Of a stretch of DNA of 64,000 nucleotides, positions 50,378 to 57,306 are shown one piece after another. This DNA is from a phage. The position numbers were made by a program, and so were the translations under genes. The DNA lies in assembly GCA_022901335.1 (NCBI GenBank), contig GCA_022901335.1_3641.1. The stretch is one strand, 5' to 3'. Every line of letters starts with the position of its first letter. Position 1 is the stretch's first letter. Below the pieces are notes generated by a model. That model made no database searches, had not been told where the DNA came from, and saw only the letters and a list, made by a program, of their open reading frames with translations.

Positions 50378-53300
50378 ATGAGCATGTGGTCTTTCGATTT
50401 TGAGTCATCCGGTTTGCTGGAAGACCCAGATCTTTATTATCACTGCGGCCTGTTTAAAGAGTTGAATAAGAACCGTTTTATGCTGTTCCTTCCTCTGAAT
50501 GACCGCACACACTACTCCGAGGAGGATATAGAGAAGGCTAAGAACTTTATTCTGGCAAAGAAAACTCTTTATAAGGATTTTGAAGTTCGCATAGCAGATT
50601 TTTCAGAGTTGGAAGGTTGGCTTACAGGCAATTCTGACTGGTCACCCACAGCTTTGAACTGCCACAACTGCTACAGCTACGACTTTATGCTGATGGAGAG
50701 ATTGTCCGGTATTCATTTTGATATGTTCCGTGATCCTAAGTGCATGGGGACTATCAACGACCACCAAGTTAATCTGTTTGATACGTTGGCGATGAGCCGA
50801 ATCTTGTGGCCTGATCGCCCTTTACCAAAAGGTTGTCCGGACTCTGTATTCAACCCGGTTACTAAGAAAATGCAGCCTGTTGGTCCTCACGGCCTTATGG
50901 CATGGGGCTACGCCCTTGGTAACCAGAAAGTTCAAATTGATGACTGGCGCGATCTTCCGTTGTGGAAGTATGTGGATCGTGTATTCGAGGACGTTATCAT
51001 CCAGGAGCTGCTCTGGAAAGAGCTGGTAGCGGAATCAAAAGGTGTATTCTACGGCAAATCTGACATGCAGAACTTTATGTACGATCCAGCCAAAGAGAAG
51101 CCGAAAGGGTTCAAGAAGATCACCTGGAAGAACGCATTACGTCGAGGAATGCTGCAGCACTTCCTGATGGAGCTGCAGGCCCGTCAGGGTGTATACTTCG
51201 ACATAGATGGGGCTATTGCTTTACGTGACCGTTGCGATGCGTGGATGAAAGAAATCGCTGATCGTGTTGAACCACAACTGCCTTTAAAAGAGCTGTCAAT
51301 GTCTCAGCGGCCCAAGTTCCCTGAAAAGCCGTTTAACCAAGACGGGACAATCTCTAATAATGGTTGGAAATGGTTAAAAGATAAGCTTGGCTATCCTGTA
51401 GACATGAGTGCTTTAGAGTTCAAAGCCCCGCCTAAGCGAGCATTTACCTCTACAGGAGATGTCAGTAAGATGGGGATAAAATGGTGTGAAGAGATGGGCT
51501 GCAAAGACCCCGATAAGATGGCTGATTTCTTGAGAGGCTATATTAAGGGCACCTCCACACCACAACCTTTACCTAAAGAGCTAATGGATCAGGCAATAAG
51601 TGATCTACAGCAGAAGCGAATGCCGGACTGCAAGATACCTATGAAAATCAGCAACCAGGACGACATTAAGCGATACCTGATCAGTGCTGGTTGGCTTCCA
51701 ACAATGTGGAGAACTAAGGATGTAACTAAAGACAGCAAGAAGAAAGCTCTACCTGATGCAGATGTTGATGCACGAGTATATGCATATATGGACGAGCTTT
51801 TAGAGTCAGAGTATTGTGACCTGATTATCAACTTCTGGAACAAAACTGATGCTAAGTTCCAGACAACCGTGCACAAGTTCCGAAGCTTTCCTAACTCCGA
51901 AAGGATTAAAAAGGAAGTATTCGGGAAAATACGTAGAAAAGCTAGGGCACTTATTACTTCTCCGCAACTGAAAGATACGTTTGGACACCTATGCCCTAAT
52001 CTTGAAAAATTGAACGGAGAGATGGCTAAAGATATCGTCTTGTGGTTATCATTGCGAAACCGCAGATCGGTCCTTGATCCAATCAAGGAGGATAAGGTTG
52101 ATACTGGTCTTCTTAATCACCCACGTTTGAAGATTGACCATAAGCTTCCTGCTAAAAGTTCTGGATTAACAAACACTTCCCGACAGAAACACAGTATTTG
52201 TGCAAACATGCCTAAACCATCTCCTAAAGTGGTTATGGGTAAAGAGATGCGTAGTCTGTGGGGTGTTCCTCCAGGATACTTTGAGATCGGTATTGACGGG
52301 TCCAACTTAGAGCAGCTTATCGGGGCTTGGGGTGCCTTTGAGTTCGACAACGGCCTGTATTACGATGTTGTAAGTAATGGCGATGCACACTGTTATTCAG
52401 GAGATACACAAATTCTCACGGAGAAAGGGTGGGTGAGGTTTGAAGATCTTGATCCGGGAACACAAGTGTTCCAGTACGATCACAGCACCTCGTCAATGAA
52501 CCTTGTTACTCCATTAAATTACGTTAAGCGTAGTTATTATGGGGATATGTATCATTTCCACAACAGTAGTGTGGATTTTATGGTTACAGATCAACACCGG
52601 ATGCTGACTGTGGATCACAGAAGCAATAAATTGTTTGAAGATTTGGCAAAAGACCTGAAAGCAGGTAAAGGGTCTAATTCAGGAAGAAGGTTTATCCATG
52701 CGGCAGAGTTTTATGGGAATACAGCCTTATCTCCTGCCCAGGTTAATTTGCTTATTGCTATTCACGATGATGGGCACTTGCATACAAATAAGGACGGCAG
52801 CATCGTGTGCAGGATTCAGGTCGGAAAGGGAAGAAAAGTTGCAACGCTTTTAGATACTTTTTCTGCTCTAAGCCTTAGTTATGTAGAGCAGAGCGGGAAA
52901 ACCACAAAAGGAGGCTTACTGGCGAGAAGGTTCCAATTCCACGTTCCGTCCTGGGTATTTGAGTTTTTGGACAGCAATAAGGATTTCACCTACAACCTGA
53001 TGAACCTTGATAAAGAATCTAAAAACCTGTTTATAGCTTCTTTATCTAACTGGGACGGGTGGGTATCTTCCGAAGGTGGAAAGGTTGCTTACTACTCTCA
53101 GGCCGAGTGCAGGAAGAAATCTGTAGAGGTGGTGTCTGCGCTGGCTACTCAGTGTGGTTTACGGAATAATACGGTGGCGATTCACAAAAAAGGTCGTGCC
53201 GTGCAGCACAGAATCACAATTGGTAGCAAACAAAGAGCAGGGTTGCTGACACTATCTAAAGAGTCTGTCGAGGTGAGCGGTTCTTTGGTTTATTGCGTTA

Positions 53301-54124
53301 CCGTCCCTTCTGGAGCAATCATTGTGAGAAGGAATGGTAAAGTGGCAGTGTGCGGTAACTGTAATAACGCCAAAGCTTACTCTTCTGTAGCAGGCAAGGA
53401 GATTTCCCGTAACGACGGTAAACCTATCACGTATGGGGTTATGTACGGGGCACAAAAAGATAAAGTTGCAGATATGCTGGACATCTCTCCAGAGTTGGGA
53501 CAAAGGGTAATCGATGCGCTTTGGGATGCCAACCCTGGTCTTAAGGGCCGTAAAGAGGATCTGGAGAAATTCTGGGAAGCAACGGGTAAGAAGTTTATCT
53601 ACTCTTTTGATGGTCATGCCATCTGGACCCGATCTAAACACTCTTTACTTAATGCATACCAACAGAATGGTGGTGCATCGCTGTGTGACTTGGTTGGGAT
53701 ACTTATGCACCACCAAATGGTGAAGCGTGGGTGGTACGATGAAGGTGTTCGTCGTATTATCTATTACCATGACGAATATCAGCTTCAAGTACCTGACACA
53801 CCGAAGTATAAGACTGTGTACACCTTCGACACAATTGAAGAATTGGAAGCATTTAAGGCAGAGCAGGAGGCCAAACTTCATGTGTTCGACGGTCATAAGT
53901 ACAAAAAGGCACGCAAGGATGAAAACGGAAACGAAGTGGTTGACAGAGACGGAAACACGGTGTACGATCCTATCCTGAACGATGACGGAAAGCTTGAACT
54001 TATCTGGAGTCCTGTGGGCGAAATGGTGGTACATTGCTTCTGGCAAGCTTCTAAAATGATGGGAGTCCCGTTCCAGATCACAGGTGAATACTTGTGTGGT
54101 CGTAATTGGGGTGATTGTCACTAA
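50378..54124 (+). CDS. family A (T7-like) DNA polymerase with intein insertion
   Basis: Exo I FDFESSGL; motif A IGIDGSNLEQL; motif B RNDGKPITYGVMYG; motif C YYHDEYQLQV; about 323 aa inserted between A and B. Confidence 0.85.
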   Translation: MSMWSFDFESSGLLEDPDLYYHCGLFKELNKNRFMLFLPLNDRTHYSEEDIEKAKNFILAKKTLYKDFEVRIADFSELEGWLTGNSDWSPTALNCHNCYSYDFMLMERLSGIHFDMFRDPKCMGTINDHQVNLFDTLAMSRILWPDRPLPKGCPDSVFNPVTKKMQPVGPHGLMAWGYALGNQKVQIDDWRDLPLWKYVDRVFEDVIIQELLWKELVAESKGVFYGKSDMQNFMYDPAKEKPKGFKKITWKNALRRGMLQHFLMELQARQGVYFDIDGAIALRDRCDAWMKEIADRVEPQLPLKELSMSQRPKFPEKPFNQDGTISNNGWKWLKDKLGYPVDMSALEFKAPPKRAFTSTGDVSKMGIKWCEEMGCKDPDKMADFLRGYIKGTSTPQPLPKELMDQAISDLQQKRMPDCKIPMKISNQDDIKRYLISAGWLPTMWRTKDVTKDSKKKALPDADVDARVYAYMDELLESEYCDLIINFWNKTDAKFQTTVHKFRSFPNSERIKKEVFGKIRRKARALITSPQLKDTFGHLCPNLEKLNGEMAKDIVLWLSLRNRRSVLDPIKEDKVDTGLLNHPRLKIDHKLPAKSSGLTNTSRQKHSICANMPKPSPKVVMGKEMRSLWGVPPGYFEIGIDGSNLEQLIGAWGAFEFDNGLYYDVVSNGDAHCYSGDTQILTEKGWVRFEDLDPGTQVFQYDHSTSSMNLVTPLNYVKRSYYGDMYHFHNSSVDFMVTDQHRMLTVDHRSNKLFEDLAKDLKAGKGSNSGRRFIHAAEFYGNTALSPAQVNLLIAIHDDGHLHTNKDGSIVCRIQVGKGRKVATLLDTFSALSLSYVEQSGKTTKGGLLARRFQFHVPSWVFEFLDSNKDFTYNLMNLDKESKNLFIASLSNWDGWVSSEGGKVAYYSQAECRKKSVEVVSALATQCGLRNNTVAIHKKGRAVQHRITIGSKQRAGLLTLSKESVEVSGSLVYCVTVPSGAIIVRRNGKVAVCGNCNNAKAYSSVAGKEISRNDGKPITYGVMYGAQKDKVADMLDISPELGQRVIDALWDANPGLKGRKEDLEKFWEATGKKFIYSFDGHAIWTRSKHSLLNAYQQNGGASLCDLVGILMHHQMVKRGWYDEGVRRIIYYHDEYQLQVPDTPKYKTVYTFDTIEELEAFKAEQEAKLHVFDGHKYKKARKDENGNEVVDRDGNTVYDPILNDDGKLELIWSPVGEMVVHCFWQASKMMGVPFQITGEYLCGRNWGDCH
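52391..53359 (+). mobile_element. intein with LAGLIDADG homing-endonuclease domain inside the DNA polymerase gene
   Basis: block A CYSGDTQILTEKGWV after extein GDAH; block B TDQH; LAGLIDADG-like LLIAIHDDGHL and FIASLSNWDGW; ends VAVCGN before +1 Cys. Confidence 0.65.
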
Positions 54125-54173
54125 TGTAAACTATCAACACATGGAAGTGTTGTTGAGCAAAGAGGAGACTTTT

Positions 54174-54458
54174 ATGGTAGTAGAACCAACAAAAACATTT
54201 ACATCTATGACTATCCCTGTTATTATGCAGGTGGAGTGTGTTCAGGTATCTCAAGTGTGGCCTGGTACCAAAATCCCAACAGGGCCTGATTTCTTTCAGG
54301 TTGGGAAAGTGTACAATGTCTGGAAGGCACCAGATTGTTACCCTTTCATCAAAGATGACCGTGGAATGTTGTGGTATCTTGGAAATGATTTGACACTTCA
54401 CCTTGGGAATGTTATTATTGCAGTATTCAGACTTAACAAGAAGGAGACCGATCAATGA
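54174..54458 (+). CDS. small protein, early paralog family 2 (member a)
   Basis: ATG 54174 after RBS AGAGGAG (track ORF 54084 overlaps the polymerase 3' end); shares F.VG..Y......KDD.G..WYL motif. Confidence 0.4.
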   Translation: MVVEPTKTFTSMTIPVIMQVECVQVSQVWPGTKIPTGPDFFQVGKVYNVWKAPDCYPFIKDDRGMLWYLGNDLTLHLGNVIIAVFRLNKKETDQ

Positions 54459-54682
54459 CAACTTTGGTTAAAGCTACTTTTGTAGAAGAAAAGATGACAG
54501 ACCTGTCATTCTTTAAAGAAGGAAATACCTACGAGGTTTATTACGATAAAGCTCGTGCAAACAAAATGATTAAAGACGAGGAAGGGGTTGCCTGGTATAT
54601 CTCTCACCTAGCAAACGGTGAGTATCATATCTACGGAACCACTTTGCTTGCCAAGTTTGTAGTTGTTGAAGAGGACCTATGA
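54455..54682 (+). CDS. small protein, early paralog family 2 (member b)
   Basis: RBS AAGGAGA; FKEGNTYEVYY...KDEEGVAWYISHLANGEYHIYG. Confidence 0.45.
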   Translation: MTTLVKATFVEEKMTDLSFFKEGNTYEVYYDKARANKMIKDEEGVAWYISHLANGEYHIYGTTLLAKFVVVEEDL

Positions 54683-54873
54683 AAGTAAAGTATCTTGCTG
54701 AAGGTATGAATAGGTATTTTACCCTTGGTGAAGAATATTGGCCCTTTACAAACAACGGCGATGTCTACGTGAAAGATAATTTCGGCACGCCGTGGTTTCT
54801 GCACTCTAATGGGCTGGGATACTCCATTTACTGCGGTGCAGTGAACAACACAACTCTTGCAGAGTTCGTTTAG
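54679..54873 (+). CDS. small protein, early paralog family 2 (member c)
   Basis: FTLGEEYWPF...KDNFGTPWFLHSNGLGYSIY. Confidence 0.45.
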   Translation: MKVKYLAEGMNRYFTLGEEYWPFTNNGDVYVKDNFGTPWFLHSNGLGYSIYCGAVNNTTLAEFV

Positions 54874-54883
54874 AGGAGGTAGG

Positions 54884-55255
54884 ATGTTAGTAAAAGGTAC
54901 CCACACAGTCAAACAACGTATTGAAGTTGAGATTGATGATTGTGAGCTGAAGCATATTTTACGGTCATGCTCCAACGTTTTGCTCCTTAGTATTCTTCAG
55001 GAGCGAGCGGAGAACGAGTTCTTAAATGCATTGGCAGGCCGTCCTGGTGACTTCTGTGTGCGTAAGCGTGGTGACAACAAGTCATGGCTGTGGGAAATCG
55101 ATGCCGACTGGGATTACCACAAAAATGAGGGTATAGATGAGCCTATTCGTGAATTGACAGACAAAGAGGTTCAGACGTACAATGAAGTTTGTCATTGGGC
55201 AACACGCCAACAAATTTACCTCGACCCTGTGTGGCTGATTGAAAATAGCCATTGA
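54884..55255 (+). CDS. hypothetical protein
   Basis: ATG 54884 after RBS AGAGGAGG. Confidence 0.45.
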   Translation: MLVKGTHTVKQRIEVEIDDCELKHILRSCSNVLLLSILQERAENEFLNALAGRPGDFCVRKRGDNKSWLWEIDADWDYHKNEGIDEPIRELTDKEVQTYNEVCHWATRQQIYLDPVWLIENSH

Positions 55256-55280
55256 CAAGAAGTAAGATTAGATATAAGAT
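55252..55280 (+). promoter_or_regulatory. sigma70-like promoter TTGACA-N17-TAAGAT
   Basis: consensus -35, 17-bp spacer; upstream of 55332 gene. Confidence 0.45.
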
Positions 55281-55331
55281 GCTTCACACAAACAGATCGG
55301 TGATTTTTAAATAACTAAGGAGACTGCCAAG

Positions 55332-55586
55332 ATGAAAATTACTTTGAAGCCAGAATGCGTTGCAAATGACCGAGCTTTTAAAGATTGCACAGTCGGTGCA
55401 ATTTATGAAGCAGAGTTTTGTGAGAACCCTCTGGTAAAAGCCCTTCTGGAAGAAGGGGCCCCTTTATCACAAGAAGAGATCGATGAGCTGGAAAACTCAG
55501 CACAGTGCCTTACCTTTAAAGATGATGAAGGAGACTCTGTCTGGTGCACTGTTAATGAAGTCGTTTTTGTAAAACCTGAACATTAA
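55332..55586 (+). CDS. small protein, early paralog family 3 (member a)
   Basis: RBS AAGGAGA; AFKDCTVGAIYEA...LTFKDDEGDSVWCTVNEV. Confidence 0.5.
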   Translation: MKITLKPECVANDRAFKDCTVGAIYEAEFCENPLVKALLEEGAPLSQEEIDELENSAQCLTFKDDEGDSVWCTVNEVVFVKPEH

Positions 55587-55589
55587 TAC

Positions 55590-55627
55590 TTGACAACAGC
55601 GATAGGACCTAATACAATGGTCCTATC
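55590..55627 (+). promoter_or_regulatory. sigma70 promoter TTGACA-N17-TACAAT with 9-bp inverted repeat bracketing the -10
   Basis: GATAGGACC (55601-55609) and GGTCCTATC (55619-55627) flank TACAAT. Confidence 0.5.
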
Positions 55628-55649
55628 AAAACGAAAGGGGACCACAACA

Positions 55650-55910
55650 ATGACCAAACAATACCAACGAATTAAAGCCAAGGTTAAGCCAGACTATCTG
55701 GAGAAGGACTCTGCTTTTCGGGACTGCACAGCTGACAAAGTTTACACAGGGGCCGTCCTGTTGAACGATGAACTTGAAGTAGATGTGCTGGGTAAAGAGG
55801 CCGTTATCGAGGATGACAACGGTGACTGTGTTTTCTGCACCACACGAGAGCTAGAAGTCTTAGAATATTTCGGTGAAATCTTCAACTCCTTAGACGACGA
55901 GGAAGCGTGA
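55650..55910 (+). CDS. small protein, early paralog family 3 (member b)
   Basis: internal ATG 55650 chosen because the track start lies upstream of the promoter; AFRDCTADKVYTG...IEDDNGDCVFCTTRELEV. Confidence 0.45.
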   Translation: MTKQYQRIKAKVKPDYLEKDSAFRDCTADKVYTGAVLLNDELEVDVLGKEAVIEDDNGDCVFCTTRELEVLEYFGEIFNSLDDEEA

Positions 55911-56299
55911 TGAAAAATATTTGGGATATCGATATCTTTGAAGCCTCTAAGCTTGACGGTGCTGATGGAGTGATTATGGTGTCTGATGGCAAGGCAACAC
56001 TAACTTCCGGAGATATCATCTATGCCTTGGACGAGCTGGCGCTTCTGAAATCTACCGGTAACACTTTGGAGGAGCGTCTTCAAGGATTCGCTTTCAAAGA
56101 AGGTACAAATACAGCCATGATGTGCACCACACGGACAGTTCAGGTTGGTAACGGTGTCTATATGATTATTGCTGTGTGTCCTAAATTCAGCAACGTCAAC
56201 AAAGATGATGCTGACGCGGTCAACGATGTGGTTGTTCTCTTCGTGGGTGACGCTATGGCAGATCTGATGAATGCAGGAGAAGCAGCAAATGAAGACTGA
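55907..56299 (+). CDS. hypothetical protein
   Basis: 130 aa, ATGA overlap. Confidence 0.5.
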   Translation: MMKNIWDIDIFEASKLDGADGVIMVSDGKATLTSGDIIYALDELALLKSTGNTLEERLQGFAFKEGTNTAMMCTTRTVQVGNGVYMIIAVCPKFSNVNKDDADAVNDVVVLFVGDAMADLMNAGEAANED

Positions 56300-56591
56300 A
56301 AACATCACCCCAGCAGGGTTCTTAAAAGTATACCGTGAACTGCTATATACTACAGAGGACAGTGTTCTAGAGTATCCAGAATATCTTTTGCTGTATAAGT
56401 ATCTGCAGGAGGCTGGTGAAAATCTGCCAGTTAGTGCAGAAGGTGGTCCAAACTGGATATACAGCGCATGGAGAAAGGTTGACATTCTCCCAGACCCAGG
56501 TAAAGATATGGTAGTTTGGCAGCTTATCAACAACATCGGGATTCCAATCTTTGATGAAGCTGTTAAAATCTATTTTGAACTTGACGATTAA
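56289..56591 (+). CDS. hypothetical protein
   Basis: ATG 56289 after RBS AGGAGAAG. Confidence 0.45.
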   Translation: MKTENITPAGFLKVYRELLYTTEDSVLEYPEYLLLYKYLQEAGENLPVSAEGGPNWIYSAWRKVDILPDPGKDMVVWQLINNIGIPIFDEAVKIYFELDD

Positions 56592-56608
56592 TATCAGGAG
56601 ACCTTAAG

Positions 56609-56854
56609 ATGACTGAAGCAGTTGCTCGCGCAGGACAGAAAGTACGTTGTGTTGAAGTAGGTTTTGGTGGCAAAGGGTGTCAAAACTTGACTCAAGGCAA
56701 GGAATATGCTGTTATCTCTGGTGGTGGCGACGAAAGTATTGTGTTCGAGGGCCACATCCTGGATGCTGAAAACTTTGAAATCTTTGACGACGATGGGGAT
56801 CCGATCACCTGCCTGCTGGACGGGAATTGGGGAACTTTCGAAGTGATTGGCTAA
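56609..56854 (+). CDS. small protein, early paralog family 3 (member c)
   Basis: RBS AGGAGA; GCQNLTQGKEYAV...FDDDGDPITCLLDG. Confidence 0.45.
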   Translation: MTEAVARAGQKVRCVEVGFGGKGCQNLTQGKEYAVISGGGDESIVFEGHILDAENFEIFDDDGDPITCLLDGNWGTFEVIG

Positions 56855-56864
56855 CAAATACCTA

Positions 56865-56906
56865 TTGTAATTTACAGAAGGGGATGCTAAAATAGTGTCT
56901 CCTTCT
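56865..56906 (+). promoter_or_regulatory. sigma70 promoter TTGTAA-N17-TAAAAT with inverted repeat bracketing the -10
   Basis: AGAAGGGGA (56876-56884) and TCTCCTTCT (56898-56906), one mismatch, flank TAAAAT. Confidence 0.45.
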
Positions 56907-56937
56907 ATGTTGTTCAAATAAAATCGGAGATTCCATA

Positions 56938-57306
56938 ATGGAACAAATGAACGATCAAGAGTCGGTTGCGATGAACGAGCAAGAACAACCTCAAGAATTT
57001 TTCTTAGGGTTAAGTAAAGATCAAGTGTCTCTTTTGCTAGTGCTTTCTTCTTTCATGGGAAGACTTCAGGAGCTCACACAACAACCGGAGGCTGAACAAT
57101 TATTTCAGGCTCTGCGTGAAGAAGAAAAATATCGTCGTTTGGACTATGCCTTAGGTTGGGTAGCTCAACAACGAGATATGTTGATGGCCCTCTCTGGGAC
57201 CACAAGTTTTGCAATGGGCCTGTTGGCTCAAGTTCAGGACAAATTAATTCAAGCAGGGTTTGCACACACGGCAAACACTAACGAAGAACAAGGAGACAAA
57301 GAATGA
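56938..57306 (+). CDS. hypothetical coiled-coil protein
   Basis: 122 aa, RBS GGAGA. Confidence 0.5.
   Translation: MEQMNDQESVAMNEQEQPQEFFLGLSKDQVSLLLVLSSFMGRLQELTQQPEAEQLFQALREEEKYRRLDYALGWVAQQRDMLMALSGTTSFAMGLLAQVQDKLIQAGFAHTANTNEEQGDKE

Follow-up and report, generated by a model that had tools for sequence, protein, structure and literature searches.

Small proteins encoded directly downstream of the DNA polymerase gene in rV5-like phages: two sets of paralogs with predicted β-barrel folds

What are the tiny genes that follow the DNA polymerase gene of rV5-like phages, are they copies of one another, and what could their products do? We address this question in a phage contig (GCA_022901335.1_3641.1 of GenBank assembly GCA_022901335.1), from which a stretch of 64,000 nucleotides, hereafter the window, was analyzed. 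An initial annotation had placed six short open reading frames (ORFs) between positions 54174 and 56854 into two paralogous families, Family 2 (F2a, F2b, F2c) and Family 3 (F3a, F3b, F3c). All six ORFs exist on the + strand; each starts with ATG behind a Shine-Dalgarno sequence and encodes 64–94 amino acids (aa). The six-gene locus lies directly 3′ of the gene for a family-A DNA polymerase (50378–54124), and the region 54000–57000 shares 97–98% identity with many Vequintavirus (rV5-like) myophages of E. coli, e.g. MaxTheCat (~98%), Murica and rV5. All genes of the locus are labelled 'hypothetical protein' in Murica, isim, ECP2309 and S127 BCL3, and the rV5 genome paper does not mention paralog families (PMC3606486). 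The best explanation, to which we give a probability of roughly 0.6, is that the products are six small, mostly acidic single-domain β-barrels that form three branches, go back to an SH3-like ancestral module and have an accessory, protein-binding role. The isoelectric point (pI) is 4.1–5.0 for five of the six proteins and 6.5 for F2a.

On sequence comparison, F2a, F2b and F2c are paralogs. Their genes are adjacent on the same strand and are joined head-to-tail by ATGA overlaps. F2a (54174–54458, 94 aa, phrog_12922) has a GAGGAG ribosome-binding site, F2b (54455–54682, 75 aa) is the central member of the family and is predicted to fold into a six-stranded β-barrel, and F2c (54679–54873, 64 aa) starts in the ATGA overlap with F2b. 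An alternative upstream ATG of F2a, at 54141, is not conserved. Smith-Waterman scores were compared with those of 1000 shuffles to obtain Gumbel P values, with 45 pairs counted in the correction. The F2a–F2b pair reaches a z-score of 8.9 (P 6e-6) and the F2b–F2c pair 5.2 (P 7.5e-4, or ~0.03 when corrected for 45 pairs); F2a and F2c (z 2.4) are linked through F2b only. When all 413 ORFs of the window are searched with phmmer, Family 2 partners rank first or second, and hhalign comparison of ortholog profiles joins F2a to F2b at E 2e-5 and F2b to F2c at E 9e-3 over 59 columns. Furthermore, F2b, F2c and F2a match a profile built from distant relatives alone at 6e-12, 3e-10 and 5e-8, respectively (hhalign), a match that is partly circular because those relatives were found with a Family 2 seed. 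The similarity within the trio thus exceeds chance on formal alignment. The motif by which the trio was originally recognized is also real, since it agrees with the invariant residues F20, G23, Y26, D41, G44, W47, A66 and F68 in an alignment of the three paralogs and their orthologs. Members differ in the segment between strands 1 and 2, which is ~23 residues longer in F2a than in the others. In two variants of F2a, P0021 and P0023, a stretch of 11 residues in the loop ahead of the KDD turn is duplicated internally in tandem (KAPDCHPFIKE / KAPNCYPFIKD).

Family 3 is less uniform. F3a (55332–55586, 84 aa) and F3b (55650–55910, 86 aa, a predicted five-strand barrel) are clearly paralogs by sequence, with a shuffle z-score of 12.7, a phmmer E value of 1e-7 and an hhalign E value of 4.5e-10 that improves to 3.7e-12 with enriched profiles. 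In tblastn searches with F3a, F3b is the second match in ~37 genomes. The two proteins have in common the invariant residues D-x-A-F-x-D-C, followed by Y, N and DD-x-GD-x-V-x-CT, and F3a has a 15-residue insertion relative to F3b. By contrast, F3c (56609–56854, 81 aa, phrog_4927) is not significantly similar to F3a or F3b in the shuffle test (z 2.5 and 1.5) or by phmmer (E 1.7–5). The motif AF(K/R)DCT, proposed for all three members, holds for F3a and F3b but is replaced by GKGCQNLT in F3c. Thus, the paralogy proposed for the whole of Family 3 stands for one pair and fails for its third member.

Could F3c nevertheless be a true third member, a highly diverged duplicate of F3a/F3b? We regard this as possible but doubtful. 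The DDxGD-x-(V/I)-x-C turn of F3c recurs in F3a/F3b, as do the separation of a Cys from a Tyr by 6 to 9 residues and two cysteines that align; F3c also belongs to the same gene run as F3b and gives an hhalign E value of 3e-4 at 39% probability when the F3b+ and F3c+ profiles are compared. In most profile comparisons, however, only 14–16 columns around DDxGD align, with E values of 0.004–0.015, or 1e-3 at 21% with enriched profiles. A generic 'T-x-GKEY-x-V ... DD-x-G' module derived from unrelated proteins scores better (E 1e-5, 82%), spanning both the LTQGKEY-x-V and the I-x-DDDGD segments of F3c. In addition, F3c has a PHROG of its own, with no cross-match to those of F3a or F3b, and no F3c ortholog is present among the matches of the F3b structural model in BFVD, the coverage of which is incomplete.

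The same generic module would connect all six proteins. It matches F3a/F3b at 4e-4 to 9e-5 (34–59% probability), Family 2 and F3a/F3b match each other in profile comparison at 2e-4 (46%), and in an iterative search with hidden Markov models (HMMs) F3c is the best match in the window after F2a–c (E 8e-4 to 2e-3). We are moderately confident that Family 2, F3a/b and F3c represent three branches of one superfamily, in which F3c would be a lone branch with no specific sister relationship to F3a/b. Distant relatives also display the module. An HMMER search of 1.84 billion representatives with the Family 2 profile returned 18 proteins at E ≤0.001. P0088 and P0092 are divergent Family 2 orthologs, and the metagenomic proteins P0090, P0091 and P0096–P0099 each contain 2–5 tandem 'wT-x-GKEY-x-V ... 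I-x-DD-x-G' modules; the 60-aa P0100 is also among the matches. The repeat proteins have motifs in common with F2a–c and match them significantly in HMM and profile comparisons, but they carry 2–5 modules per polypeptide versus one gene per module in our locus, and their repeat units look shorter, with ~28–53 residues aligning to the profile. P0097 comes from a phage replication region, next to genes for primase-helicase-like and SNF2-helicase proteins and a methylase, and P0099 is fused to DUF3310. Three further candidates (P0087, P0094 and P0095) proved spurious, being sums of many weak repeats, including ankyrin-like ones, and P0093 and P0089 are doubtful as summed weak repeats. The Family 2 superfamily profile also picks up four other small ORFs of phage Bas11, namely, bas11_0048, 0061, 0071 and 0079 (L008 37578–37943, 42369–42554, 45147–45338 and 47216–47653), with E values of 6e-4 to 5e-2, and Bas11 seems, from these sequence matches, to carry several copies of the module besides its Gp54 protein. 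Word-indexed homolog searches and tblastn against phages recovered only members of the same genus, except for three weak matches of F3c (two in Klebsiella phages and one in an Aeromonas phage). The outside-genus tblastn match listed for F3c (37% identity, E 6e-5; L006 3983–4237) is in Aeromonas phage phiA050. It corresponds to an 84-aa hypothetical protein encoded between the genes for RNA polymerase and single-stranded DNA-binding protein in a 53-kb phage, that is, in an early/replication-region context.

Structural modelling provides a more specific comparison. The AlphaFold2 model of F2b, built from the alignment of paralogs and orthologs and with no templates, has a predicted local distance difference test score (pLDDT) of 91.4 and is a small β-barrel of six strands; the long stretch that joins strands 1 and 2 contains a short helix. 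The same six strands and loop element are found in Gp54 of phage Bas11, and the Family 2 trio is predicted, on this model, to have the rare fold of Gp54(Bas11). The latter is a non-essential 66-aa protein of unknown function with a six-stranded barrel of very rare topology, which directly binds and activates the toxin CapRelSJ46, partly unfolding to clamp its pseudo-zinc-finger domain (Zhang et al., Nature 2024, PMC11578894). The references used for it were PDB entries 9AXB and 9ERV (complex), Pfam family PF25180 ('Phage antiviral trigger protein Gp54') and the sequence from MZ501085. The F3b AlphaFold model (pLDDT 84.3) shows a five-strand barrel with a helix in the strand 1–2 loop, i.e. the order of elements in F2b minus one strand. 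A Foldseek search of BFVD with the F2b model retrieved dozens of small uncharacterized coliphage proteins at template modelling (TM) scores of 0.6–0.8. Several of these are encoded per genome in T1-like phages, with four matches in T1-like phage NBD2, and one match is in Cronobacter phage CR9. In BFVD the F3b model matched its own ortholog, the protein of Shigella phage CM1 that is orthologous to F3a (E 7e-5) and, weakly, SH3 and PRC-barrel proteins. Searches of PDB sequences with the Family 2 profile, the F3a/b profile and F3c found nothing. The F2b model also matches A0A6B9X1Z6 of Vequintavirus isim (78 aa, 'putative minor capsid protein'; TM ~0.68, E 2e-3). Since this protein is encoded outside the locus, it was rejected as an F3c ortholog, and these genomes probably encode one or more additional members of the fold at other sites. 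By sequence, no further member is detectable within the 64-kb window.

What could such barrels do? It is plausible that all six go back to a single SH3-like barrel module of the form 'T-x-G-K-E-Y-x-V ... I-x-D-D-x-G', one that coliphage accessory genes commonly encode. Each barrel would be produced in the cytoplasm of the host during early or middle infection and, as a stand-alone protein-binding module, would bind a different host or phage protein via its core strands and strand 1–2 loop, serving as an accessory host-takeover or counter-defence factor. A corollary is that host immune sensors could recognize some of these proteins. Protein binding is proposed because it is in that manner that Gp54(Bas11) binds the zinc-finger-like sensor domain of CapRelSJ46, and Gp54 is the one protein of this fold with a solved structure. 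Gp54 resembles the proteins of our locus in size (66 versus 64–94 aa), in being small and acidic and in being encoded among many tiny accessory genes. However, it is encoded by a single-copy gene of a T1-like siphophage, whereas here three tandem copies lie 3′ of the polymerase gene in a 135–140-kb myophage. The authors who described Gp54 speculate that it inhibits another defence system, and its close homologues from Bas5, Bas8, Bas10 and SECphi27 do not trigger CapRelSJ46 (PMC11578894).

Several observations weigh against this explanation. In a PF25180 scan of 28 sequences, Gp54 alone matches (6.3e-34) and none of F2a–c and F3a–c does so at E ≤1. Comparison of 17 Gp54 homologues with the Family 2 profiles by hhalign yields E values of 0.03–0.05 at 1–2% probability, in a 50-column register that makes topological sense but is not significant. 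Sequence homology to Gp54 is undetectable, and the fold match could therefore be due to convergence. By the F2b model, Family 2 would at least fold like Gp54, while it is not a sequence member of PF25180. Models were made for two of the six proteins, F2b and F3b, and the links among Family 2, F3a/b and F3c fall in the twilight zone of sequence comparison (E 2e-4 to 1e-5, probabilities 21–82%). Finally, the timing of expression is deduced from gene position only, and the function of all six proteins, as well as that of the fold, is one that we infer as the most likely by analogy.

The position of the locus in the replication module raises the main rival explanation, namely that these are barrels of the SH3, KOW, Tudor or cold-shock type that bind nucleic acids and act in phage replication or transcription. 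This would account for the proximity to polymerase and helicase genes, and it is consistent with the helicase-rich neighborhood of P0097 and with weak Pfam matches to a CSD-like barrel and the RimM PRC barrel, given by individual sequences of the A5 alignment. We nevertheless consider it improbable. The acidity noted above speaks against nucleic acids as ligands, the conserved motifs show no visible basic patch, the Pfam matches are far below the cut-offs, and the only characterized protein with the fold binds a protein.

A further candidate function emerges from Pfam family DUF7244 (PF23896, SH3 clan), to which F3c has a match of 14.5 bits (E 0.039), below the gathering cut-off of 27. Altogether, 9 of the 28 sequences of the A5 alignment, F3c and eight others, match this family weakly (best E 2e-4), all below the cut-off. 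DUF7244 proteins are likewise small stand-alone coliphage barrels, and the F3b model has the five-strand count of an SH3-like domain, whereas the F2b model has a sixth strand. Since a lysis role was proposed in 2026 for the stand-alone DUF7244 SH3 protein of the T1-like phage KanT1 (PMC13164509), the six proteins could by extension be SH3-type lysis helpers that bind the cell wall. We judge this to be highly improbable. The DUF7244 gene adjoins the lysis cassette in Drexlerviridae, but our locus, in the replication module, is flanked by the DNA polymerase gene and a 408-aa gene rather than by a holin-endolysin-spanin cassette, and no lysis gene is annotated within 15 kb around it. No N-terminal hydrophobic or membrane-spanning segment was seen in any of the six proteins when the sequences were read by eye, no predictor having been run, and the lysis role of DUF7244 is itself a hypothesis. 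Protein-binding accessory barrels are the explanation that we consider most likely.

Has the locus been shaped by selection for change, as the term 'diversifying' module implied? In the sense of positive selection this is wrong. Gene order is kept in phages that are ~85–90% identical in DNA, and Nei-Gojobori ratios of nonsynonymous to synonymous substitutions (dN/dS) against those divergent phages are 0.01–0.23 for all six genes, with dS ≤0.7, indicating purifying rather than diversifying selection. Individual values are 0.01–0.09 for F2a, 0.08–0.12 for F2c (versus two divergent genomes) and 0.02–0.11 for F3b. The genes are also retained: F2b, F3a and F3c, the three searched with tblastn, are present in 116–119 isolate phage records, essentially all of the same genus. 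Truncated or frameshifted versions of F3a occur in many metagenome-derived clusters and in isolate JLBYU08, where the reading frame breaks at GGGGCCCC, a G4C4 run inside the gene (~55451–55458). The idea that F3a is dispensable was discarded, since the gene is intact in the other 115 of 116 isolate records and the breaks fall at the G4C4 run; thus, sequencing or assembly error is likelier than true gene loss. Sixteen GenBank records named 'Campylobacter phage' (MG0656xx, host Campylobacter jejuni) also match the locus, those listed being ~97% identical, and their host label looks doubtful.

How did the copies arise? A divergent rV5-like lineage has five Family 2-type genes at the same locus in L013 (4930–7111) and at least six in L014 (386–1708), versus three in the window. 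L013 is a 136.8-kb contig in GCA_012894635.1 and L014 is a metagenome contig that starts inside the array; the lineage, from which P0092 and P0088 come, is represented by these two contigs only and has no high-identity match in the phage collection. The presence of five and at least six copies in the sister lineage supports repeated tandem duplication, at least for Family 2. We suggest that tandem duplication enlarged the arrays, that the copies then diverged deeply and that purifying selection now maintains them. Alternatively, the copies might have been gained separately by horizontal transfer from a large pool of small-barrel genes instead of being duplicated in place. The paralogs are only 27–35% identical to one another, versus 73–100% for orthologs across the genus, the module is widespread in unrelated coliphages, and the L013 array is interrupted by foreign genes (Ead/Ea22-like, 63 aa). 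Separate acquisition is nonetheless unlikely in our view. Within the window, the best match of each Family 2 member is another Family 2 member, and the four extra L014 copies are nearest to F2b, three of them at 4e-9 to 1e-6 and the last at 1e-2. Among 1.8 billion representatives, orthologs aside, no outsider is nearer to the paralogs than they are to each other, and the head-to-tail ATGA overlaps together with the series of 3, 5 and at least 6 copies fit local duplication. The Family 2 HMM found no match in the polymerase-downstream region of four other Vequintavirinae lineages, Seunavirus, Henunavirus, Mydovirus and ABPH49, where other genes are located. The repeated duplication of tiny genes envisaged in the initial annotation is therefore upheld for Family 2, by adjacency, overlaps and copy number, and for the F3a/F3b pair, whereas it does not extend to F3c. 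The description of the two families as interleaved is loose: the Family 2 trio is contiguous, and it is the Family 3 genes that are split by the unrelated genes 55910–56299 and 56289–56591.

The arrangement of putative regulatory signals differs between the two families. The locus falls within the replication transcription unit described for rV5, the genome of which has sigma-70 consensus promoters throughout (PMC3606486). A consensus scan of the short stretch that separates F2a from the polymerase stop codon (54124) revealed no promoter- or terminator-like site, the nearest promoter-like matches being within coding sequence, and we infer that Family 2 is co-transcribed with the polymerase gene. 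F3a is preceded by a sigma-70-type promoter (TTGACA-17-TAAGAT, 55252–55280, + strand; 10/12 consensus matches), the hexamers of which are kept in five genomes while the spacer varies. The promoter upstream of F3b (TTGACA-17-TACAAT, 55590–55618, +; 11/12 matches) has an invariant -35 element in five genomes, a -10 element that is either TACAAT or TATAAT, and a variable spacer. F3b heads a run of genes that continues with 55910, 56289 and F3c and ends at a terminator-like hairpin with a 14-bp stem (56876–56906, +), which is conserved in five genomes and carries a terminator annotation in Murica. The promoter-like site at 56581–56610 ends within the start codon of F3c and therefore cannot serve this gene. 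Hence, the proposal that each Family 3 member has its own promoter fits F3a and F3b, with their conserved hexamers, and not F3c. The -10 hexamer of the F3b promoter lies in the loop of a 9-bp inverted repeat (55601–55627, +; RNAfold -15.3 kcal/mol), in which an A-T to G-C compensatory change is found in isim and S127 BCL3. Inverted repeats that place the -10 hexamer in a hairpin loop are seen at three promoter-like sites, 55601–55627, ~55258–55285 and 56876–56906, the last of which coincides in part with a promoter-like site of the following gene (TTGTAA-17-TAAAAT). Such a repeat could serve as an operator, could fold at the 3′ end of the RNA from the preceding gene, or could combine terminator and promoter.

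The genes that lie among the six are unrelated to them. On the + strand the order is F2a, F2b, F2c, a 123-aa gene, F3a, F3b, a 129-aa gene, a 100-aa DUF7238 gene, F3c, the terminator-like hairpin, a 122-aa gene and the 408-aa gene that bounds the locus downstream, for which a Pfam scan gave no match. The 123-aa gene (54884–55255, phrog_6273) is the last of the same-strand run after the polymerase gene; it has conserved synteny and no similarity to Family 2 or Family 3. The 129-aa gene between F3b and F3c (55910–56299, phrog_8284) was considered as a fourth Family 3 member owing to a CTTR tetrapeptide in common with F3b, and was rejected at an hhalign E value of 0.079 and 0.7% probability. The metagenome protein P0058 reads as F3b joined at CTTR to the C-terminal part of the 55910–56299 product, which could be either a natural deletion/fusion or an assembly artefact. 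The 100-aa gene (56289–56591) matches DUF7238 (PF23885) at 5.5e-7 and 30.2 bits, with a cut-off of 27. Upstream of the locus, the polymerase is 1248 aa long in the window versus 925 aa in Murica, owing to a 323-aa in-frame insertion (52391–53359) that runs from CYSGDTQIL to VAVCGN and is followed by Cys. Pfam Hint_2 matches the first 35 residues of the insertion at E 7e-5, below the cut-off. These sequence features are typical of an intein, probably one that includes a homing endonuclease; in other relatives, free-standing HNH genes split the polymerase gene instead.

As annotation, the advance is modest, since the genes had been called before. Six conserved rV5 proteins thereby acquire a structural classification and a hypothesis that can be tested, and they would be further members of an already known class of small phage accessory proteins. 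Experiments should be easy in this phage group, which includes BASEL phages Bas48–59 and already serves for defence-system screens. A bolder and, in our estimate, improbable idea is that the array constitutes a diversified panel of Gp54-fold 'clamp' proteins tuned to different host immune sensors or factors, acting as inhibitors, decoys or sometimes as the target of a sensor. If so, the increase from 3 to 5 to at least 6 copies would be the trace of an arms race with zinc-finger-type sensors, CapRel-like or other, and rV5-like phages would carry a counter-defence island directly 3′ of the polymerase gene.

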